From Lonepinella koalarum (GTDB lineage: Bacteria; Pseudomonadota; Gammaproteobacteria; Enterobacterales; Pasteurellaceae), in assembly GCA_030525745.1 (NCBI GenBank), contig JAUNED010000002.1:46222-110221 (forward strand): a stretch of DNA of 64,000 nucleotides, read 5' to 3'. The translations under genes were made by a program, and so were the position numbers. The notes beneath the pieces are model-generated. The model worked only from the letters and a program-made list of their open reading frames with translations. It was not told the origin of the DNA and did not search any database. This document shows, one piece after another, positions 9,056 to 64,000 of this stretch (position 1 is the first letter of the stretch; every line of letters begins with the position of its first letter).

Positions 9056-9620
9056 TTCTCCAAAGAAAATCCCCATTAAATCACACAGATTTTACATAGC
9101 GTTGTCAATGTGAAATTGTTATATCAGTTTTACTTTTTAGAATATCCATCTTTACAAAAGCCCTAAATATCAAAAATAAAGTTAATAAAATGAAATGGAA
9201 TTAAGTGATAAGCTTGCATAAACACAGTTGCTGTCTTGCTTTAAAAGTATTTGTTACTTGTGTATAAGTCTGTGATTTTATTATTACGTAGTTTTTACTT
9301 ACCATATAACTTATTTCGCATAATGTATATTATGTTAAATATAACCATAGATTAAGTCACACTTAAACACGCAATTTTCTGGGAAAGACGAATAATATTG
9401 CATGCACAGAATTTGCACGAAATTAAAAATTGAAAAATGAATGAAAAAACGAGAGAATTTTTAAAATCCTACTTTTAGCTAATTAATTGATTTTATTATT
9501 TATTGTGATGAGGTCACTTTTTTAGAGTAAATTACGCTATTATCTATGATAAAAACTGGCAATTTAGAGAGAAAACAGGCACAATATATGTGAATATTAG
9601 ATAATAGGTTTAGAATTAAA

Positions 9621-13900: not shown

Positions 13901-15832
13901 ATGAACATTATTGAAATCAATAAACTAAACCACTATTTCGGTGAGGAAGAAAATCGAGTTCATATCCTAAAAGATATTTCGTTGCATATAGAAAAAGGCG
14001 ACTTTGTTGCGATTATTGGACAATCAGGTTCAGGTAAATCCACCTTAATGAATATCATTGGCTGTTTAGATACACCAAGTAGCGGATCCTATAAAATTCA
14101 TGGGAGAGAAACAGCAAAACTAAATTCAGATGAACTTTCTGATTTACGCAGTCAAAAATTTGGCTTTATTTTTCAACGTTACAATTTGCTCTCTACTCTC
14201 TCTGCTAAAGAAAATGTCGCTTTACCGGCGATTTATGCAGGTCAATCACAAAATGAACGCTTGGCTCGCGCTACTCAATTATTAAAAAAATTAGGGTTAA
14301 ATGATAAACAGGAAAACAAACCTAACCAGCTTTCCGGAGGGCAACAGCAACGAGTGAGTATTGCGAGAGCCCTAATGAATGGCGGTGAAATTATTTTAGC
14401 CGACGAACCAACCGGTGCATTAGATTCACATAGCGGTGCAAATGTCCTGTCTATTCTACATGAATTACACCGTGAAGGGCATACCATTATTATGGTAACA
14501 CACGATAAAGAGATTGCAGATCAAGCGAATCGCATTATTGAAATTAAAGACGGTGAGATTATTGCTGATACACAAAAATATACAGTAAAAAGTGCGGTAG
14601 AAAATACCCCTGTTTTAAAAAAAGCTGTGGGTTTTAGCAAAGATCAACTGATTGAAGCTTTCCGTATGTCCGTCAGTGCCATTATTGCCCATAAAATGCG
14701 TTCCTTATTAACTATGTTAGGTATTATTATTGGGATTACCTCTGTGGTGTCCGTTGTTGCATTAGGTAATGGTTCTCAGCAGAAAATTCTTTCTAATATT
14801 AATGGGTTAGGTACAAATACCATGACTATTTTTAACGGCACGGGATTTGGTGATCGTTGGGCTGCGCATATGCAAAATTTAACTGTTGCCGATGCTACTG
14901 CTTTAGAACAACAAAGCTATATTCAATATGTTACGCCTAATAATTCAACCAGTGGTTTAATAGTATATGGAAATCAATCCTTTGCATCTTCTAATATGCG
15001 TGGTGTCGGTGAACAATTTTTTTCGGTAGAAGGGCAAAAATTAACTCAAGGGCGGTTAATTTCCGAACAAGACATTGTAGACAGTGGTTCCGTGGCTATT
15101 TTAGATGAAAAATCAAAAAGGGCGATTTTTCCCAATGAAAATCCTATCGGAAAAATTGTGCATTTTGCTCAAAGACCATTACGAGTGATTGGTATCGTTT
15201 CAGATCGTCAAATGTCCTCACCTAACAGCACGTTGAATATATATATTCCCTATACTACGCTAATGCATAAAATTACAGGGGGAAATAAAATTAATTCAAT
15301 TACAGTCAAAATTGCTGATAATGTAAATACAATAGTCGCTGAAAAAGGCATTACCGAACTTTTAACTGCTCGTCACGGTAAAAAAGATTTCTTTATTATG
15401 AACACGGATACTATTAAGCAAACCGTAGAAAGTACAACAGGCACAATGAAATTGCTTATTTCTTCCATCGCATTTATTTCCTTGATTGTAGGCGGAATCG
15501 GGGTGATGAATATTATGTTGGTTTCTGTGACTGAGCGGACAAAAGAAATTGGTGTGCGTATGGCTATTGGAGCAAGAAAACGGCATATTTTGCTTCAATT
15601 TTTAATTGAAGCTGTATTAATTTGTGTAATTGGTGGTGTGTCCGGTATTTTGCTTTCATTAATTATAGGTAGCCTTTTTAATTTGTTTATTCAAGATTTC
15701 CCTATGGCTTTTTCAACTTTTTCAGTGGTGGCCGCTATTTTGTTTTCCAGCCTGATTGGTATTATGTTTGGTTATATGCCGGCAAAAAAAGCTGCTCAGT
15801 TAGATCCAATTATAGCATTGGCTCGGGAATAA
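13901..15832 (+). CDS. macB: MacB-type ABC transporter (ATPase fused to FtsX-like permease)
   Basis: 643 aa. Walker A GQSGSGKST, signature LSGGQQQRVSIARAL, Walker B ILADEPTGALD, C-terminal 4-TM FtsX domain. Confidence 0.9.
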   Translation: MNIIEINKLNHYFGEEENRVHILKDISLHIEKGDFVAIIGQSGSGKSTLMNIIGCLDTPSSGSYKIHGRETAKLNSDELSDLRSQKFGFIFQRYNLLSTLSAKENVALPAIYAGQSQNERLARATQLLKKLGLNDKQENKPNQLSGGQQQRVSIARALMNGGEIILADEPTGALDSHSGANVLSILHELHREGHTIIMVTHDKEIADQANRIIEIKDGEIIADTQKYTVKSAVENTPVLKKAVGFSKDQLIEAFRMSVSAIIAHKMRSLLTMLGIIIGITSVVSVVALGNGSQQKILSNINGLGTNTMTIFNGTGFGDRWAAHMQNLTVADATALEQQSYIQYVTPNNSTSGLIVYGNQSFASSNMRGVGEQFFSVEGQKLTQGRLISEQDIVDSGSVAILDEKSKRAIFPNENPIGKIVHFAQRPLRVIGIVSDRQMSSPNSTLNIYIPYTTLMHKITGGNKINSITVKIADNVNTIVAEKGITELLTARHGKKDFFIMNTDTIKQTVESTTGTMKLLISSIAFISLIVGGIGVMNIMLVSVTERTKEIGVRMAIGARKRHILLQFLIEAVLICVIGGVSGILLSLIIGSLFNLFIQDFPMAFSTFSVVAAILFSSLIGIMFGYMPAKKAAQLDPIIALARE

Positions 15833-56035: not shown

Positions 56036-57705
56036 ATGAGCCAACAGCCAACAGCCAACAGCGTGATCTCAACGCTGCCACAAGTCAAGCCTTTTTAAAC
56101 GATCTCGACCAAACCCTTTGGACAGCCGCCGACAAGCTGCGTAAAAACCTAGACGCCGCCAATTACAAACACATCGTTCTTGGCTTTATCTTCTTAAAAT
56201 ACATCTCCGACAGCTTTACCGATTTCCAAGCCAAGCTAAAAACCCAACTCACCACGCCCGAAAGCGAACTCTATCTTGACCCTGCACTATTTGACGCACA
56301 AGAATTTAGCCAAATTCTTGCCGAAGAGTTGGAACAGCGGGATTACTATGCAGCCGAAAACATCTTCTGGGTGCCGGAGCAAGCCCGCTGGGACAACATC
56401 AAATCATTAAGCAAACTCAATCTTGGCGATGAATTGCCTTGGGGAGACAAATTTAAAGGTGTCAGCCGCTTGATTGATGATGCCTTTGAAGCCATCGAGC
56501 GAGAAAACCCCAAACTCAAAGGCGTACTCCAACGCATTGCCGGCTTTGGCGTGCCTGATGAAATGCTCACAGGCTTGATTGACCTGTTCTCACGCACCAA
56601 TTTCACCCAGCCGATGCACAATGGCGAACCCGTCCATCTGCAAGCCAAAGACATTTTGGGACACGTCTATGAATACTTTCTTGGACAATTTGCCCTTGCC
56701 GAAGGCAAAAAAGGCGGTCAATACTTCACGCCCAAATCCATCGTTACCTTAATTGTTGAAATGCTCGAACCCTATTCAGGGCGGATTTACGATCCGGCAA
56801 TGGGCAGCGGTGGATTTTTTGTGCAAGCCGACCGCTTTATTCAGGCTCACGCTGGCAACCGCAACGCCATTTCCGTTTATGGGCAAGAATCCAACCCCAC
56901 CACCCGCAAACTGGCGGTGATGAATATGGCAATTCGTGGCATTCCCTTTGACTTTGGCGACAAACCCGAAGATACCCTGCTCAACCCCCTGCACATCGAC
57001 AGAAAAATGGATGTTGTGATGGCAAATCCGCCCTTTAACCAAAAAGAGTGGTGGAGTGAAAGCCTAGCAAACGACCCACGCTGGGCATACGGCACACCGC
57101 CGCAAGGCAACGCCAACTTTGCGTGGCTGCAACATATGATTTACCACCTCTCCCCCAAAGGCAAAATGGCACTCCTGCTCGCTAACGGCTCAATGAGCAG
57201 CCAAACCTCAGGCGAAGGCGACATTCGCAAAAACATCGTGCAAGCCGACCTTGTCGAAGCGATGATTGCCCTGCCCAATCAGCTATTCACCAACACCCAA
57301 ATCCCTGCCTGCATTTGGATTATCAATAAAGCCAAAGCCAGAAAAGGTGAAGTGCTGTTTATCAACGCCACCCAAATCGGCTATATGAAAGACCGCGTCT
57401 TGCGTGATTTCACCGTTGATGACATCGCCAAAATCAGCGACACCTACCACAACTGGCAAAAACAGAACGGCTACGAAAATATCCCTGCGTTTTGTTATTG
57501 TGCCACGCTGGACGAAATCGCCAAAAACGATTTTGTGCTGACCGCAGGGCGGTATGTCGGTGCGATACAAGAAGAAGATGACGGCGTGCCGTTTGCAGAA
57601 AAAATGCAGGAATTGACTGCTTTATTAAATGAACAATTTAAACAGGGGCAGGAATTGGAACAGCAAATCGTAGAGAATTTAAAGGGATTGGGATATGGCA
57701 TTTAA
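56036..57705 (+). CDS. hsdM: Type I R-M methyltransferase subunit HsdM, interrupted. The ATG frame stops after 20 codons; the conserved HsdM N-terminus continues in the +2 frame (possible phase-variable OFF state or frameshift pseudogene)
   Basis: The ATG at 56036 has a GAGGA SD 8 nt upstream. In its frame MSQQPTANSVISTLPQVKPF is followed by TAA at 56096. The frame that carries LNDLDQTLWTAADKLRKNLDAANYKHIVLGFIFLKYISD…NPPF… (N6-adenine MTase motifs) is open from 56026 to 57705 but has no ATG before 56329. The (CCAACAG)3 tract lies between them. Confidence 0.8.
56039..56061 (+). repeat. Heptanucleotide simple-sequence repeat (AGCCAAC/CCAACAG) x3.3 at codons 2-9 of hsdM
   Basis: Read directly: ag CCAACAG CCAACAG CCAACAG cg. 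Four or one copies would fuse the ATG to the HsdM frame. Confidence 0.75.
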
Positions 57706-58999
57706 TCAGTATGTATTTTCAGATATTGTTGAATTAATATCCGAAAAAGTAAAAATTAAAGACTTAAAAAAAGAAAACTATATTTCGACAGATAATATGC
57801 TGCCTAATTTTGGCGGAATAACACCTGCTGAAAATCTTCCAAATTCAAATTCTTGCAATAGGTTTGCCAAAAAAGACATTTTGTTTTCCAATATAAGAAC
57901 CTACTTTAAAAAAGTTTGGCTTGCTGAATTTTCAGGTGGTTGTTCTCCTGATGTTTTGGTAATGCGTAGTAAAAATACAGATATTTTATTAAATGAGTAT
58001 TTATTTTTACTTATCCGTTCTGATGATTTTATTAACTTTACAGTTATATCAGCAAATGGGGCAAAAATGCCTCGCGGCGATAAAAATGCAATGAAAAATT
58101 TTCTTTTCAATATCCCAAGTATTGAATATCAAAAAAAATGTATTGCCAATTATTTTGCCTTTGACCAAAAAATCCAACTCAACACCCAAACCAACCAAAC
58201 CCTAGAAGCCATTGCACAGGCGATATTCAAAAGCTGGTTTGTGGATTTTGACCCTGTGCGTGCCAAAGCAGCCGCCCTAAGCGAAGGCAAAAGCGAACAC
58301 GAAGCCAACCTTGCGGCAATGTCGGTGATTTGTGGCAAAGACACCAGCGAGTTAAACGACACCGAATACAAAGCGCTTTGGCAAATCGCCGAAGCCTTCC
58401 CAAGTGAGCTTGTGGAAAATGAACAATTTGGCGAAGTGCCGAAGGGGTGGGAAGTGAAGCCGCTAGATAATATTGCCAATTACCAAAATGGTTTGGCTTT
58501 ACAAAAATTCCGACCTGAAAATAATGAGACTTTTTTGCCTGTCGTTAAAATTGCACAATTACGGCAAGGTTATGCAGATGGAGAAGAAAAAGCAAGTGCT
58601 GATATAAAACCTGAATGTATTATTGATAATGGAGATATTATTTTCTCTTGGTCTGGTACCTTAATGGTTGATATATGGTGTGGCGGTAAGGCTGCCTTAA
58701 ATCAGCATTTATTTAAAGTTACATCAAATCATTATCCAAAATGGTTTTATTATCTTTGGACAAAGTACCATTTAGCTGAATTTCAACGAATTGCAGCAGA
58801 TAAAGCAGTAACAATGGGACATATTAAGCGTGAGCATTTATCACAAGCATTGTGTGCTGTGCCTGATGATAATTTTTTAAACTTGTACAACTCTATCAGC
58901 AATGTATTAGATTTAATTATCGCAAATAGAATTGAAAATTTTGATTTAGCTAAAACAAGAGATTTTTTATTACCTAAATTGTTGAGTGGGGAGGTTTAA
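57695..58999 (+). CDS. hsdS: Type I R-M specificity subunit HsdS (two target-recognition domains)
   Basis: 434 aa. Overlaps the hsdM stop by 11 nt. AT-rich TRD1 (about 57700-58150), GC-rich conserved central region (about 58150-58480), AT-rich TRD2. C-terminal conserved LPKLLSGE. Confidence 0.85.
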   Translation: MAFNQYVFSDIVELISEKVKIKDLKKENYISTDNMLPNFGGITPAENLPNSNSCNRFAKKDILFSNIRTYFKKVWLAEFSGGCSPDVLVMRSKNTDILLNEYLFLLIRSDDFINFTVISANGAKMPRGDKNAMKNFLFNIPSIEYQKKCIANYFAFDQKIQLNTQTNQTLEAIAQAIFKSWFVDFDPVRAKAAALSEGKSEHEANLAAMSVICGKDTSELNDTEYKALWQIAEAFPSELVENEQFGEVPKGWEVKPLDNIANYQNGLALQKFRPENNETFLPVVKIAQLRQGYADGEEKASADIKPECIIDNGDIIFSWSGTLMVDIWCGGKAALNQHLFKVTSNHYPKWFYYLWTKYHLAEFQRIAADKAVTMGHIKREHLSQALCAVPDDNFLNLYNSISNVLDLIIANRIENFDLAKTRDFLLPKLLSGEV

Positions 59000-59001
59000 T
59001 T

Positions 59002-59904
59002 ATGAACCAAAAAGAAATCATTAAACAAGAGCAACAAGCATTACTGGAAAATGCTTGCTCGTCTTTACAGCTTGGAATTGATGACTATCTTCTTTCAGAA
59101 GAAAATAAAAATAGAAGATTATCATCTGTTCGTAATTTTATCAGTGGATTATTACTTCTCTATAAATACAAGTTATTTATTGAAAGCAAAGGAGATGACC
59201 CATATGAGTTTATCCGAGCAAGAAGAAATAATAGTACCTCTAGACCAGTACATACTGTTAATGTAAAAGATATCAAGAGCAAACTAAGTTTTCTCAATAT
59301 AACAATCAATGAAAATTTGCTAGATAGTGTAATTTCTGCAAGAAATAACTTAGAACACTTTTTCTTACCAGAAGAAACCAACCCAATAGAGATTATCCAT
59401 CAATCTTATATTTTACTATCTGAATTTTTTATTCAATATTTATCTGAACTAGGGACACTTGAAGAGTTTATATCATCTACATACTATAAAACTCTATTAG
59501 ATATAGATGAAGCATATAAAGAAATAGAAAAGCAGTGCCAAAATAGTTTAAATAAAATTGATGATTATCCTACTTATGATGTTGAAGATGTATTATTAGA
59601 AAATGCAAGATGCCCTTTTTGTAAATCATCGTTAATAAAATATGAAGATGGAAATTACCCAAATTTAAAATTTAGTTGTTATGGGTGTAATAAAGGTAAG
59701 TATCTTGACATTTATGAGTTATTAGGAATTACACATCGTGTTATTCGTCAAGGAGGAGATATTCGTTCAATTTGCTATGATGAAGATTGTGGTGATGTTA
59801 ATGTCATAGATGGGGTTTGTTTTACTTGTGGATACAAACATGACCCAAATAGAGATTATGAAAGTGAAGCTCGTTTAAAGTATTTAGCAAATAAAGATGA
59901 TTAA
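59002..59904 (+). CDS. Uncharacterised 300-aa protein embedded in the R-M operon. Candidate HEPN-like domain (R114-x4-H119: SARNNLEHF) plus a C-terminal double zinc ribbon (CPFC…CYGC, CYDEDC…CFTC)
   Basis: The ATG is 2 nt after the hsdS stop (TAATTATG), so it looks co-transcribed and coupled. Very AT-rich. No Walker motifs. Four CxxC pairs in the last 90 aa. An R-x4-H motif closes an N-terminal helical region. Confidence 0.65.
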   Translation: MNQKEIIKQEQQALLENACSSLQLGIDDYLLSEENKNRRLSSVRNFISGLLLLYKYKLFIESKGDDPYEFIRARRNNSTSRPVHTVNVKDIKSKLSFLNITINENLLDSVISARNNLEHFFLPEETNPIEIIHQSYILLSEFFIQYLSELGTLEEFISSTYYKTLLDIDEAYKEIEKQCQNSLNKIDDYPTYDVEDVLLENARCPFCKSSLIKYEDGNYPNLKFSCYGCNKGKYLDIYELLGITHRVIRQGGDIRSICYDEDCGDVNVIDGVCFTCGYKHDPNRDYESEARLKYLANKDD

Positions 59905-59980
59905 ATCCTTAGGATAATAAATTTCCCATACAATCAATAATCGGTTAAAAAATTAAGAATTTTTCAATTTATAAAATGGG

Positions 59981-60294
59981 TGTACGCAGTACGCCCCTAC
60001 AATCGGAGTTCTAATTTATACATGAGCGAAAATAATGTTCCTTCAGGATTTTAATTTACATTTAAACCAAAATAATGCTCGAATGTAGGGGCGTATGTCA
60101 TACGCCCACAATAACATAAATCCCAACGGATAAACGTGAATAATGTTCCGTTTAAGCGTACGCTGTACGCCCAAACAATCGGGTTTTTAAATTTATATTT
60201 GAGCAAGAATAATGCTCATATGTAGGGGCGTATTGCATACGCCCACAATAACATAAATCCCAGAGGGTAAACCTAAATAAAACATCATGTTCCC
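59981..60294. repeat. Tandem duplication of a roughly 140-bp composite element. Two sub-units (GTACGCnGTACGCCC…AATCGG…GAGC.A.AATAATG.TC and AATAATGCTC..ATGTAGGGGCGTAT..CATACGCCCACAATAACATAAATCCCA..GG.TAAAC)
   Basis: Unit 1 is 59981-60149 and unit 2 is 60156-60294, about 80-90% identical by eye. Each has a perfect palindrome GGGCGTAT-nnn-ATACGCCC (60092-60108 and 60228-60245) and a GTACGC dyad. Unit 2 runs into the brnA 3' end. Confidence 0.6.
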
Positions 60295-60602
60295 GTACGC
60301 TCAGCCTGTTTTAGAAAATCGCTGAGGACTTGATTGATTTTGCTTTGCCAGCCTTTGCCGTAGGCTCTAAAACCTTCTACCACGTTTTTATCCAAACGGA
60401 GGGAGACGGCTTCTTTTTGTGAACCTGTCGGTCTGCCTCGTTTTTTGATGGCGGTAGCAAATTCTGCTGGGCTAACAGGGCGTTCATCTTCATCGATGCC
60501 GTCCCAGACAAAATCTTGATCGTCCGGAATGGCTTTAACGGCGGCGAGCAGCTGTTTTTTGGTTAAGGTTTTATTCGTCAAGGTTTTGTTGTAGGTATTC
60601 AT
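60285..60602 (-). CDS. brnA: BrnA-type antitoxin (BrnT/BrnA type II TA system)
   Basis: 105 aa. Conserved BrnA C-terminal block (…VSLRLDKNVVEGFRAYGKGWQSKINQVL…). Overlaps the upstream brnT by about 30 nt. Confidence 0.75.
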   Translation of the reverse strand: MNTYNKTLTNKTLTKKQLLAAVKAIPDDQDFVWDGIDEDERPVSPAEFATAIKKRGRPTGSQKEAVSLRLDKNVVEGFRAYGKGWQSKINQVLSDFLKQAERTGT

Positions 60603-60864
60603 AATATGCCTCTCTTTCGGCTTTGGACGCTGGGCGAAAACTGATTAATCGAATGCAATTTTCTCGTTCGGTATGGGCTAGGGATAACACCAATAATCGC
60701 CCGAAAGAATAGGCGAATGATTGGGTTCGGACTTCATTATTGCGGATCGTTTCAACATCAAATCGGTAGGGCGAAGATAACACTTCGTCCGCATCGGCAA
60801 AATCTAAACCGTGTTTGGCGAGATTGATTTGACGTTTGTTTTCGTCCCAAATGTAAATTTTCAT
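60571..60864 (-). CDS. brnT: BrnT-type ribonuclease toxin (DUF497)
   Basis: MKIYIWDENKRQINLAKHGLDFADADEVL……RLISFR.A…ER.YYE is the BrnT signature. Start is at the first ATG; the upstream TTG-initiated extension is rejected. Confidence 0.75.
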   Translation of the reverse strand: MKIYIWDENKRQINLAKHGLDFADADEVLSSPYRFDVETIRNNEVRTQSFAYSFGRLLVLSLAHTERENCIRLISFRPASKAEREAYYEYLQQNLDE

Positions 60865-60989
60865 AATTATTGTATATACATAAAATAAATGCAACGACTA
60901 TATTCAACAACCTAACAGAAACAAAATACAAAATCCGATTGGATTGCTATTTTTTCGATCCAGATCCCAAAAATAAAAAAGGACACACT

Positions 60990-63900
60990 ATGCTGATCAA
61001 CGAAAACACCATTGAACAATCCGCCATTGCGACTTTGCAAAGCTTGGGCTGGCAATACACCTACGGCAAAACGATTTTGGCAGGTTTAGAACACGAATGG
61101 CGGGAGCGAACCGCTGAGGTGATTTTAAAGCCGCTACTTGCTGAAGCGATTGCAAAATTCAACCCGAATTTGCCCGCTTGTGAGGTGGAAAATGTGGTGG
61201 CACAGGTGTGCCGTGCCGACAGTGGAGATTTGGTGGAGCGTAACCGTCAGGCTTATGATTGGCTAAGAAATGGGGTCAAAATCACTTATCAGCAAGACGG
61301 CGAGCAGGTGTCTGATGTGGTGCAGCTGATTGATTTTCAGCGTCCAGAAAACAACGATTTTCGCATTGTCAATCAGCTGGATATTGGCGGTAAAAAAGGC
61401 AAACGCATTCCTGATTTGATTGGCTTTGTTAATGGCTTGCCACTGGTGGTATTTGAGCTGAAAAATCCGCTCAAAGAAAATGCCGACATTGGCAAGGCGT
61501 TTGCCCAACTGCAAACCTATAAAGATGAAATTTCTGATTTGTTTGTGTTTAATCAGGCACTCGTGATTTCAGACGGCATTGTCGCCCGTATCGGTTCGCT
61601 GACCGCCGATTTCGACCGTTTTACCCCTTGGCGTGTGGTTGATGAAAAAAATCAGAGCAAACGCATTGTGTTTGAAGATGAACTCACCGCCCTACTGCAA
61701 GGCGTAATGACACCGCAAAATCTGCTGGATTATGTGCAGAATTTTGTGGTGTTTGAACGAGATGGCAAAAACCGCTTGATTAAAAAAATCGGGGCGTATC
61801 ATCAGTTTTATGGCGTGAATGAAGCGGTGGATTGCACCTTGCTTGCCGCCACAGGCAACCGCAAAATCGGTGTGTTTTGGCATACGCAAGGTTCGGGCAA
61901 ATCCCTTTCGATGCTGTTTTATGCCGGCAAAGTATTAAGTCAAGGCTACCTGAAAAACCCGACATTAGTACTCGTTACCGACCGCAACGATTTGGACGGT
62001 CAGCTTTACGCCACTTTTTGCGGTGGTGAGGCACTGCTCAAACAAACGCCAATCCAAGCCGATGGGCGAGACGAACTCCGCTCTGCCCTTGCCAGTCGTT
62101 CAGCAGGCGGTGTGATTTTTACCACCATTCAAAAATTCGGCTTAATGGAGGGCGAGCTTGCCCACCCTGTATTAAACGAGCGGGAAAACATCATTGTGAT
62201 TACCGATGAGGCACACCGCTCGCAATATGGTTTTAGCCAAAAAATCAACCACAAAGGCGAGTATCGTGAGGGGTACGCCAAGCACTTACGCAGTGCATTG
62301 CCGAATGCGTCCTTTATTGGTTTTACCGGCACGCCGATTGCCCTTGATGACAAAGATACCCAAGAAGTCTTCGGTAAATATGTCTCGATTTATGACTTTG
62401 AAGATGCGGTGGAAGATGGGGCAACCGTGCCGATTATTTATGAGCCACGCCAAATCAGCTTAGGCGAAAGTGGCGAGTTTTCCAAAGTGATGGAAGAGGC
62501 ACAACAACTGATTGATGACGATGAAAACAGCTATAACTTCCGCCTGCGTGAAAAACTGCACAGCGTGGATAGCCGTTTGCAGAAAATGGCGGAAGATATT
62601 ATTGCCCATTACGATGAGCGTACCAAACAGCAAGACGGCAAGGCGATGGTTGTGGTGATGAGCCGTGCCATTTGCGTCAAACTCTACGACAAAATCACCG
62701 CACTTCGCCCCGAATGGCACTCAAACGATGTGCTTCAAGGCAGCATTAAAATTGTGATGACAAGCAATGCCAGCGACCCTGCCGAGTGGCAAATACATAA
62801 TCAGGACAAAAAAACCTTAGAAAAACGCTTTAAAGACCCAGACGATCCACTCAAAATCGTGATTGTGCGGGATATGTGGCTGACAGGGTTTGATGCCCCT
62901 TGTTGTAACACAATGTATATTGATAAACCAATGAGCGGACACAACCTGATGCAGGCAATCGCTCGGGTCAATCGGGTATTTCGCAATAAAAGCCGTGAAA
63001 ATGGCGGCTTGATTGTGGATTATGTCGGCTTGACCGATGAGCTGGAAAAAGCGATGAAGCAATACACCAACGCAGGCGGCAAAGAAAAGCCGGTGCGAGA
63101 CATTTCAGCGGTGCTGGAAAAAATGGTGGAACACATCACGGTCATTCGTGGGCAATTTGCCACGCCGATTGACGGACAAGCGGTTGATATTGCCAAAATT
63201 TTGCAAATCAGCGAACCTGCCAAACTGCTCAATGCGATTTTGACATCAGCCAACCATATTCTTGCCCTAGACCGCATTCAGCCAACCGATAACACTGCCA
63301 AAGACAAAACCCCACGCAAAAGCGCTTTTTTACAGTCGGTACGCTTGGCGAAAAAAGGTTATGCTTTGTGTGGGGCAATGAAAGCAGTTGAGCCCTATAA
63401 ACAGGAATTGGCGTTTTATGATGCGGTGCGTGCCACCATCATCAAAAACAGCGCCTCCCCCCGCAATCCTTCGGGTGAAGACCGCTTGTTGCAACTTACC
63501 GCCTTGATGAACCGTGCAGTACAGTCGGACGGCGTGGTGGATTTATTTGATTTGCTGAAAAAAGACCGCCCAAACATCAACCTGCTTTCCGATGAGTTTT
63601 TGGAAACAGTGAAAAACAGCCCAACCAAAGATTTGTGGCTGTCGGCAATGGAGCGTTATCTTGCTGCCAAACTGCGTGAACAAAGCGGTGCCAATCTTGC
63701 CACCAAAAAAGCATTTGAACAAAAACTCAAAGAGGCGATGAACCAATACCACAACCACAATTTAAGCGTATTGGAAATTTTAGAAGAGCTGATCGCCCTT
63801 GCCAAAGAGTTTGAAGCCCGCCAAAAACGAGGGGAAGCGTTGGGACTAAGCCCTGCGGAAATGGCGTTTTATGATGCTTTAGCACGCAACGAAAGTGCGG

Positions 63901-64000
63901 TGCGGGAAATGGGCGATGAAGTGTTGATGAACCTTGCCAAAGACATCACCGACAAATTACGCAAATCCGTCACCGTAGATTGGCAATATAAAGACTCGGT
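60990..64000 (+). CDS. hsdR: Type I R-M restriction subunit HsdR, 3'-partial (runs off the window; hand-translated, so absent from the ORF track)
   Basis: The ATG at 60990 has an AGGA SD 6 nt upstream. The open frame runs to the window end (1003 codons). It carries an N-terminal PD-(D/E)XK region (…VVFELKNP…), SF2 helicase motifs (WHTQGSGKSLSM, VITDEAHRSQ, GFTGTP) and GC-rich codon usage like hsdM. Confidence 0.9.
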   Translation, partial: MLINENTIEQSAIATLQSLGWQYTYGKTILAGLEHEWRERTAEVILKPLLAEAIAKFNPNLPACEVENVVAQVCRADSGDLVERNRQAYDWLRNGVKITYQQDGEQVSDVVQLIDFQRPENNDFRIVNQLDIGGKKGKRIPDLIGFVNGLPLVVFELKNPLKENADIGKAFAQLQTYKDEISDLFVFNQALVISDGIVARIGSLTADFDRFTPWRVVDEKNQSKRIVFEDELTALLQGVMTPQNLLDYVQNFVVFERDGKNRLIKKIGAYHQFYGVNEAVDCTLLAATGNRKIGVFWHTQGSGKSLSMLFYAGKVLSQGYLKNPTLVLVTDRNDLDGQLYATFCGGEALLKQTPIQADGRDELRSALASRSAGGVIFTTIQKFGLMEGELAHPVLNERENIIVITDEAHRSQYGFSQKINHKGEYREGYAKHLRSALPNASFIGFTGTPIALDDKDTQEVFGKYVSIYDFEDAVEDGATVPIIYEPRQISLGESGEFSKVMEEAQQLIDDDENSYNFRLREKLHSVDSRLQKMAEDIIAHYDERTKQQDGKAMVVVMSRAICVKLYDKITALRPEWHSNDVLQGSIKIVMTSNASDPAEWQIHNQDKKTLEKRFKDPDDPLKIVIVRDMWLTGFDAPCCNTMYIDKPMSGHNLMQAIARVNRVFRNKSRENGGLIVDYVGLTDELEKAMKQYTNAGGKEKPVRDISAVLEKMVEHITVIRGQFATPIDGQAVDIAKILQISEPAKLLNAILTSANHILALDRIQPTDNTAKDKTPRKSAFLQSVRLAKKGYALCGAMKAVEPYKQELAFYDAVRATIIKNSASPRNPSGEDRLLQLTALMNRAVQSDGVVDLFDLLKKDRPNINLLSDEFLETVKNSPTKDLWLSAMERYLAAKLREQSGANLATKKAFEQKLKEAMNQYHNHNLSVLEILEELIALAKEFEARQKRGEALGLSPAEMAFYDALARNESAVREMGDEVLMNLAKDITDKLRKSVTVDWQYKDS

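Follow-up and report, generated by a model that had tools for sequence, protein, structure and literature searches.

A repeat cluster in a Pasteurellaceae type I restriction-modification operon is probably an orphan array of GTAG REPs

Overview of the repeat cluster

There are four GTAG REPs between ORF300 and brnA in the 64-kb stretch of DNA analysed here (hereafter the window). Together they very probably constitute an orphan BIME-like cluster of two heterodimeric doublets, from which the REP-associated tyrosine transposase (RAYT) has been lost. The anatomy of these repeats, their positional orthology with repeats in related bacteria, the presence or absence of RAYT at the orthologous sites and the covariation of REPs with RAYT can all be observed directly in the compared loci.

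In other RAYT/REP pairs, the RAYT binds a folded single-stranded DNA hairpin, makes use of its GTAG head, and cuts and rejoins the strand close by (PMC3479197, PMC8266576, PMC2817692). By analogy, the REPs described here would be single-stranded hairpin substrates of a RAYT (TnpA-REP) of the HuH-Y1 family. The starting state would have been a longer array containing RAYT, and recombination between directly repeated REP units would have removed this gene. What remains would be a non-autonomous orphan array that is starting to decay.

Architecture of the repeats and their host operon

The 64-kb window has a G+C content of 38% and includes 48 Hin-type uptake signal sequences, and its DNA is that of the Pasteurellaceae. 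One protein that it encodes is recorded for a MAG of Lonepinella koalarum. The order of features is hsdM, hsdS, ORF300, the repeat, the oppositely oriented brnA and brnT, and hsdR (Table 1). Thus, the repeat sits between the convergent genes ORF300, which ends at 59904, and brnA, at the meeting point of the hsdM-hsdS-ORF300 genes and brnTA that had already been recognized in a previous sequence-only reading of this DNA. The hsdM gene is out of frame behind an (AGCCAAC)3 tract located at 56039-56062. ORF300 matches PADLOC family PDC-S64, a candidate defence family, over its full length (E = 6.6e-89). A Pfam search with ORF300 gave no match, and only three homologues were found. The brnTA genes encode a toxin-antitoxin pair that is a neighbour of the REP element and not a part of it. 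An exact protein look-up with BrnA returned no record.

Table 1. Repeat elements, spacers and flanking genes in the window
Feature	Position	Strand	Description
hsdM	from 56037 (hsdM and hsdS span 56037-58999)	+	type I R-M operon hosting the REP/RAYT module
hsdS	57695-58999	+	type I R-M operon
ORF300 (300 aa)	59002-59904	+	variable defence-gene slot adjoining the REP cluster
REP B1 (type B)	59978-60000	-	GTAG-GGGCGTAC-TGC-GTACACCC, one stem mismatch
Long B1-A1 spacer, 84 nt	60001-60084		GTAG tails facing ('TT'); 40-nt internal duplication (60009-60040, 60049-60080)
REP A1 (type A)	60085-60107	+	GTAG-GGGCGTAT-GTC-ATACGCCC; perfect 8-bp stem, 3-nt loop
A1-B2 spacer, 46 nt	60108-60153		REP bodies facing ('HH'); homologous to B. 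trehalosi array-internal spacers
REP B2 (type B, decayed)	60154-60176	-	GTTT-GGGCGTAC-AGC-GTACGCTT
Short B2-A2 spacer, 45 nt	60177-60221		'TT'; contains small hairpin GAGCA-AGAATAA-TGCTC
REP A2 (type A)	60222-60244	+	GTAG-GGGCGTAT-TGC-ATACGCCC, perfect
HH-spacer-like sequence and truncated type-B REP	60245-60300		GTACGC at 60295-60300; overlaps brnA stop and last codons
brnA	60285-60602 (stop codon 60285-60287)	-	Pfam BrnA_antitoxin, 6e-16
brnT	60571-60864	-	Pfam BrnT_toxin, 1e-19
hsdR	60990-64000, runs past window end	+	DNA 95% identical to M. ovis hsdR

The sequence-only reading described two adjacent copies of an element of roughly 140 bp, and this description holds. Tandem Repeats Finder reports a period of 137 nt in 1.9 copies at 60049-60301 (78% matches, score 329), and a repeat search finds a 95-nt core whose two copies, at 60049-60143 and 60186-60280, are 84% identical. 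Each copy also contains the perfect palindromic hairpin that had been attributed to it. This hairpin, GGGCGTAT-NNN-ATACGCCC, is located at 60089-60107 and 60226-60244 and has no other copy in the 64 kb. Only 0.02 matches are expected by chance, and at least two copies appeared in none of 100 shuffles. In addition, GTACGCNGTACGCCC is found at 59982-59996 and 60158-60172 (0.03 expected by chance). The GTACGC dyad reported for each copy is itself a second type of hairpin from the same family that is read on the opposite strand, and there are therefore four REPs instead of two. The complete feature extends from 59978 to 60300, which is slightly wider than first delimited.

The REP consensus is GTAG followed by GGGCGTAY-NNN-RTACGCCC. 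Each REP is 23 nucleotides long, with an 8-bp stem and a 3-nt loop, and so falls within the 20-40 nt expected of such short palindromes. The GTAG head is present on A1, A2 and B1. In B2 the head has degenerated to GTTT and the stem has lost its pairing at two positions near its base. What distinguishes type A from type B is the innermost pair of the stem, where a compensatory change gives T-A in the former and C-G in the latter. Each doublet is a heterodimer of one type A REP (stem GGGCGTAT) and one inverted type B REP (stem GGGCGTAC), and the two partners form inverted repeats of 25-29 nt that are 79-88% complementary.

Inverted repeats of this kind, along with a unit size of about 110-150 nt, would also suit a MITE, unrelated to RAYT, that arose by deletion from an ordinary insertion sequence of the DDE type bounded by terminal inverted repeats. 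However, a target-site duplication is not evident, no dispersal was found, and the ends of the element are GTAG-headed hairpins. We consider a DDE-type MITE very unlikely because the only enzyme found between such ends is a Y1/HuH transposase, which is described below.

The four REPs alternate in orientation (B1-, A1+, B2-, A2+) and are about 68 nt apart. Spacer types also alternate, wherein GTAG-facing spacers are 45 nt long, or 84 nt when they carry the 40-nt duplication, and body-facing spacers are 46-50 nt long. The distance from B1 to B2 is 176 nt, compared to 137 nt from A1 to A2, because the first unit carries this duplication. The B- A+ B- A+ order and the alternation of TT with HH spacers are the arrangement of a BIME, and Mannheimia and Bibersteinia conserve both spacer types. 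All four REPs are extragenic, and only the truncated fifth unit overlaps a gene. There are no REPs elsewhere in the window, where the cluster is the single site.

Regular spacing of hairpin repeats, here about 68 nt, is a feature that could be shared with a degenerate CRISPR-like or integron attC-like array. CRISPRs, however, consist of direct repeats in one orientation with unique spacers, whereas the orientation of these repeats alternates and the 'spacers' are of two alternating types that are roughly 80-90% conserved across genera. There are also no GTTRRRY or RYYYAAC core sites, as would be expected for attC, in the sequence. Such an identity is exceedingly improbable, in agreement with the previous judgement that the array is not a CRISPR.

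The array runs about 15 nucleotides into brnA, as indicated by a third GTACGC that is located within the last brnA codons, and this extension had likewise been noticed before. Moreover, the last codons of brnA look like spacer together with a truncated B REP. One possibility is that the entire repeat owes its presence to brnTA, either as a by-product, namely the scar left by arrival of these genes that the earlier reading had proposed, or as a control region made up of operator repeats for BrnA. We regard both versions as highly doubtful given that identical doublets are found in Mannheimia haemolytica and Bibersteinia trehalosi loci that lack brnTA, and that the array is located at the 3' end of the brnTA operon and not at its promoter. 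Because loci without brnTA carry the repeats, the repeats predate brnTA. The scar proposal therefore fails as an account of their origin, although the site where brnTA inserted is indeed the border of the array, beside a truncated REP.

The orthologous locus in Mannheimia ovis

The key comparison is with the locus (L060) of CP046531.1, which is from Mannheimia ovis (PMC9137074) and encodes a BrnT protein identical to that of the window. The order in M. ovis is brnA, an A/B doublet, an ORF of 168 amino acids, a second A/B doublet with a long duplicated spacer, hsdS and hsdM. The ORF is the RAYT gene, and thus REP doublets are present on both sides of it. Identity between the two loci is 95% across hsdR-brnTA.

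Alignment by blastn places the difference precisely. Positions 60156-64000 of the window match L060 10708-6859 at 95%, and positions 59977-60121 match L060 11383-11239, directly past the RAYT stop codon, at 86%. Between these segments M. ovis has a 530-nt RAYT cassette, and the window has 34 nucleotides (60122-60155). There is no other difference at the junction. On one side, B1, which is distal within the long-spacer doublet, aligns with the REP downstream of RAYT (L060 11360-11382). On the other side, the counterpart of the decayed B2 is an intact REP directly upstream of RAYT (L060 10688-10710). Homology among loci reaches about 30 nucleotides past the outer edge of the distal REP. A tblastn search of the 64-kb window found no RAYT.

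The RAYT-less junction is not peculiar to the window. An unbroken 238-nt blastn alignment between the window array and that of B. trehalosi spans this junction, and the 34-nt segment corresponds to part of the body-to-body spacer between reiterated doublets of the B. trehalosi array. A similar RAYT-less junction is found in a metagenomic Logan contig (L064).

The doublets are also specific to their positions. Relatives carry a short-spacer doublet upstream of RAYT, on the hsdR side, and a long-spacer doublet downstream, and the window retains both in the same order. The long TT spacer, including its duplication, is located 3' of RAYT in M. ovis, M. haemolytica and B. trehalosi, and the short TT spacer is conserved in these three species and in Logan contig L064. 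The RAYT gene of the same three species is intact. It lies between hsdR, with brnTA in addition in M. ovis, and the defence-gene position downstream of hsdS.

A RAYT lineage embedded in hsd operons

There is one RAYT lineage that occupies one slot in seven sampled Pasteurellaceae species from six genera. RAYT and REPs occur together, as in a REPtron, at the orthologous site in M. ovis, M. haemolytica, B. trehalosi, Actinobacillus suis, Glaesserella parasuis, Necropsobacter rosorum and a Pasteurella species. The latter six share the gene order hsdM-hsdS-X-REPs-RAYT-REPs-hsdR, wherein RAYT is on the opposite strand and X is a defence gene. The defence slot holds PDC-S64 in the window and PD-T7-5, SIR2/ThsA-like, Abi_C/AbiJ or HEPN-AbiU2 genes elsewhere; it is empty in M. 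ovis. The chromosomal surroundings of these hsd/RAYT loci differ from species to species. RAYT proteins are 57-61% identical where HsdR proteins are 60-65% and HsdM proteins 69-73% identical, and they are 85-96% identical where HsdR is 96-98% identical. Judged by these protein comparisons, RAYT co-diverges with HsdR and HsdM.

Each RAYT has GTAG REPs on both sides in the form of (-)(+) heterodimers. The stems vary by RAYT lineage and pairing is kept, as expected if REP and RAYT co-evolve. The stem is GGGCGTAY in Mannheimia, Bibersteinia and the window; GGACGCAC or GGACGCCA in A. suis and N. rosorum; GGACGCCA or GGACACGA, with 4-nt loops, in G. parasuis; and GGACACAC in the Pasteurella species. 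There are 19 distinct REPs from the seven species, and GTAG is invariant in all of them. Among these REPs, 96.5% of cells are paired and compensatory (double) changes are seen in three of the six scored pairs, values that were reached in none of 500 shuffles. The number of REPs is variable. There are four after RAYT in one G. parasuis genome and seven in another, and B. trehalosi has three doublets before RAYT.

In the sequence scanned, the REPs are not high-copy dispersed repeats, since there is one site in the 64-kb window and one REP clearly outside the hsd locus (L083 758-780) in about 130 kb of sequence flanking the related loci. REPs instead fill intergenic gaps of the hsd locus, including the hsdR-RAYT and hsdS-hsdM gaps in relatives. 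The element is therefore found beyond the window, and relatives carry conserved hairpins. Of the identities that the sequence-only reading had listed, it is the REP-like mobile repeat that is borne out, by the GTAG head and hairpin, the alternating orientation, the doublets flanking RAYT in relatives and the covariation of stems with RAYT.

The occurrence of RAYT in seven species of six genera and its co-divergence with HsdR and HsdM indicate that RAYT presence is the ancestral state of this locus family. This ancestry, the retention of position-specific short- and long-spacer doublets, and the ongoing decay of B2 and B1 fit a loss. We infer that RAYT was lost from the window and not gained in M. 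ovis. Perhaps, alternatively, RAYT was never present here, and a single doublet was tandemly duplicated by slippage or unequal crossing-over. The M. ovis arrangement would then be derived through insertion of RAYT into an inter-doublet spacer. The 137-nt unit is indeed a clean tandem repeat, and B. trehalosi and Logan contig L064 likewise have spacers within their arrays that lack RAYT. However, this scenario must contend with the broad distribution and co-divergence of RAYT in the slot, with the doublets of the window that are specific to their positions (the short spacer is the one towards hsdR and the long duplicated one is distal), and with the decay of B2 and B1, which is expected after loss. 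We thus consider it improbable and favour the loss of RAYT.

The RAYT protein and its wider family

The 168-amino acid ORF of M. ovis matches the Pfam family Y1_Tnp (E = 1.2e-6, 29 bits against a cut-off of 23). Its best NCBIfam match is REP_Tyr_transpos, the REP-associated tyrosine transposase (E = 1.4e-14), with a score of 54 bits that is below the equivalog cut-off of 80. A Bibersteinia relative that is 95% identical to the M. ovis protein is named RayT by NCBI. The HuH histidines H76/H78, residues W125/Q126 and the catalytic Y146 are invariant in an alignment of 13 sequences that includes E. coli RayT. Thus, the protein of the relatives has the HuH, Tyr and RAYT-specific motifs of a RAYT, and the ORF is, from its predicted protein, a Y1/HuH transposase of this type. 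The motifs NHLH, WQ and YIENN fit subclass 2.4/2.6 of PMC6006769 and not subclass 2.2, to which E. coli RayT belongs. As a tblastn probe, E. coli RayT gave no match in the window or in the loci searched with it because it is too distant. An exact look-up with the Rodentibacter RAYT P0012 returned no record, and a search of viral contigs for RAYT relatives found none.

There are more distant RAYT relatives (29-43% identity) in metagenomic sequences, and GTAG-hairpin REPs are located beside the gene, and often inside it, in 72 of the 80 examined. These REPs share a GTAG[AG]G[AG]CG outer stem and few inner positions vary. REPs of this type near a RAYT gene are the signature given for TnpA-REP subclass 2.4 (PMC6006769), and the Pasteurellaceae RAYT carries the NHLH, WQ and YIENN motifs of that subclass. 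Three of the 80 relatives also have hsdR- or hsdM-like neighbours.

An exact 23-mer, GTAGGGGCGTAYNNNRTACGCCC, is present in 47 viral contigs of any G+C content with unrelated flanks. Its recurrence in unrelated genomes is explained by the very large size of the RAYT subclass, the conserved outer stem and the few variable inner positions. A contig scan with GTAGGGGCGTATNNNATACGCCCACAAT, which includes an ACAAT suffix, found only six MAG contigs, from Bacteroidota and Lachnospiraceae and with unrelated flanks, but this suffix is specific to the window (Mannheimia has ...CCCATAACAAT) and the scan is uninformative on Pasteurellaceae copy number.

Possible functions of the array

Any present-day role of the array is probably passive. 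It would place stable hairpins at the 3' ends of the convergent ORF300 and brnTA transcripts, and it would form a recombination-prone junction beside the swappable defence-gene slot.

A related proposal is that the repeats act primarily at the RNA level, as a bidirectional transcription stop or as a protector of the 3' ends of hsdMS-ORF300 and brnTA transcripts against exonucleases, and that their REP ancestry is incidental. This proposal is compatible with the main REP explanation, as the two are not mutually exclusive. REPs are enriched between convergent genes in other genomes (PMC3733652), and the array occupies such a site. Both strands also fold far better than shuffled sequence (z = -5.9 and -6.0), and the alternating orientation puts a stable hairpin in either transcript. 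However, doublets in relatives are also located upstream of genes, in the hsdR-RAYT and hsdS-hsdM gaps, and terminator-like sites were called at none of the four hairpins. No REP combines a G+C-rich hairpin with a run of T residues, as an intrinsic terminator would; the hairpins are followed by ACAAT... on the + strand and by TACA... on the - strand. Rfam scans at gathering and permissive thresholds gave nothing credible, and the best hit was a plant miRNA model with 30 bits against a gathering score of 140. We therefore view a primary role in RNA as conceivable but not the likelier reading. As for the earlier suggestions, an array of intrinsic bidirectional terminators is unsupported by these data, and a small RNA finds neither a credible Rfam match nor a promoter/terminator pair in its favour.

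More speculatively, the RAYT/REP module might be a working part of a family of Pasteurellaceae type I R-M/defence operons, inherited together with them, and not a chance genomic parasite. This idea arises from the recurrence of the same slot by the swappable defence position, the co-divergence of RAYT with HsdR and HsdM, and the restriction of REPs to operon gaps. Perhaps RAYT and its hairpins would then mediate single-strand cut-and-paste of defence cassettes, or control operon expression, and the window would represent the state after loss of the enzyme. We consider this rather unlikely.

Most work on REP/RAYT systems treats them as repeat populations spread over whole genomes, and there is no agreement yet on what they do. 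The RAYT lineage described here has almost no dispersed REPs and is confined to a type I restriction/defence operon that is itself exchanged horizontally. The RAYT-plus and RAYT-minus natural alleles, with flanking genes that are 95% identical, constitute a compact system for the function of a domesticated RAYT. The locus could also be used to test whether REP hairpins aid the shuffling of defence genes at a hotspot embedded in an R-M operon.

Comparison with known systems

The E. coli REPtron, composed of REPs, BIMEs and RayT (YafM), resembles the locus in several respects. These include the GTAG head and hairpin, the presence of two REP types (Y and Z there, A and B here) that alternate with type-specific spacers, and a rayT gene flanked by BIME-like doublets, as is the case here in relatives. 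The enzyme is likewise a Y1/HuH protein of about 165 amino acids with conserved HuH, WQ and Tyr motifs. However, E. coli REP hairpins are long and bulged, whereas those described here are short and perfect (8 bp with a 3-nt loop), and identity between the Pasteurellaceae RAYT and that of E. coli is just 27%. Furthermore, E. coli has hundreds of dispersed REP copies, compared to very few here, almost all of which are in one operon.

REPIN-RAYT systems of the Pseudomonas fluorescens type similarly have an inverted REP doublet plus spacer as the repeated unit and a single-copy, vertically inherited RAYT, and their doublets decay where RAYT is absent. They differ in that the heterodimers described here are reiterated locally in one operon and no dispersed REPIN population was seen.

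RAYT/REP pairs have been described in Haemophilus influenzae Rd and H. parasuis (Nunvar et al. 2010, PMC2817692), which belong to the same family and have the same design of a RAYT flanked by REPs. The REP is different, however (GTAGGGTGGGC...GCCCACC), and is absent from the window. The table of that study is without the hsd-embedded RAYT lineage and the GGGCGTAY and GGACGC REPs. A non-exhaustive literature search found no description of this lineage or its REPs. Specialists might be surprised to find a RAYT/REP module conserved beside the variable defence slot of a type I R-M operon.

The array also resembles in design members of the GTAG REP superfamily such as the SMAG repeats of Stenotrophomonas (Di Nocera et al. 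2013, PMC3733652). That survey is without any Pasteurellaceae, and the family described here is not abundant. Points of likeness are the GTAG tail, a stem length within 6-9 bp and loops that measure 2-3 nt. The likeness also includes HH and TT heterodimers that are 20-100 bp apart, with conserved spacers that may contain small stem-loops, and clusters of tandemly reiterated dimers and flanking DNA that occupy the space between convergent ORFs. RAYT/REP systems, like BIMEs, are well established, and the array is a new member of this superfamily. A repeat that had been unexplained can now be annotated as a probable orphan GTAG-REP/BIME-like array that marks a lost RAYT.

RAYT genes within type I R-M operons

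In seven sampled Pasteurellaceae species representing six genera, the RAYT gene is found at one shared position within a type I R-M operon (L060, the orthologous hsd locus of Mannheimia ovis CP046531.1, and the related loci L065-L083). This operon-embedded RAYT co-diverges with HsdR and HsdM, and nearly all of its REPs are located in the intergenic gaps of the operon. No report of such an association was found in the searchable literature. Among 80 metagenomic loci carrying RAYT relatives with 29-43% identity to the Pasteurellaceae enzyme, there are three in which hsdR- or hsdM-like genes directly adjoin the relative (L106, L126 and L133), a hint that the association may reach beyond Pasteurellaceae.

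No Pfam family matches ORF300; in PADLOC, it aligns over its full length with the candidate defence family PDC-S64 (E 6.6e-89). There are only three homologues in a collection of 5.8 billion proteins. Other species have PD-T7-5, a SIR2/ThsA-like gene, AbiJ/Abi_C or HEPN-AbiU2 in this position, and M. haemolytica strains with identical RAYT carry three different genes there.

Features of the window and of related loci
Feature	Location	Strand	Description
Partial match to Aggregatibacter sRNA JA03	window 9246-9340	+	model positions 86-180 of 274
hsdM 5' tract	window 56037-56100		start is ATG-(AGCCAAC)x3.4
ORF300	window 59002-59904	+	300 aa, 29% G+C, Cys-rich C-terminus
GTAG-headed imperfect hairpin GTAGGGCGAAGATAACACTTCGTCC	window 60766-60790; L060 10075-10099	+ (window)	inside brnT coding sequence
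Long (CACAG)n tracts	L060 about 14440-14640; L065, L066, L072, L073		5' ends of orthologous hsdM

Apparent phase variation and mobility of the R-M island

With its 3.4 repeat units, the hsdM gene of the window reaches a stop after 20 codons, and the remaining reading frame of HsdM lies in a different frame from the ATG. The Mannheimia and Bibersteinia orthologues carry their tracts at this same position, although the repeat unit is CACAG rather than AGCCAAC. The window's hsdM thus has the appearance of a type I methylase gene that is subject to phase variation and is in the OFF state.

Despite the Lonepinella label of the window, its hsdM, hsdR and brnTA share 93-95% DNA identity with those of Mannheimia and Bibersteinia (window 56044-57692 and 60156-64000 versus L060, L065 and L072). 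The chromosomal flanks differ, with map/erpA in the window and glnE/UPF0231 in Mannheimia. The entire island appears to transfer between genera, plausibly by natural transformation.

The hairpin within brnT probably resembles a REP by chance. Elsewhere in the window, the JA03 match scores 45.9 bits, which is barely over the Rfam gathering score.

REP sequences in viral, MAG and metagenome contigs

Dozens of unrelated viral and MAG contigs, ranging from 29% to 69% G+C, contain exact copies of the window's 23-nt REP (L001-L053), often as inverted pairs and in the company of other GTAGGG-hairpin variants. In many metagenome relatives of RAYT, the gene itself contains a double-headed palindromic REP, which lies roughly 250-290 nt after the start of the coding region (L085, L087, L090 and L098-L160); one example, GTAGAGACGCAAAATTTTGCGTCTC, can be read as a REP from both strands. 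This feature agrees with a published oddity of TnpA-REP subclass 2.4 (PMC6006769).
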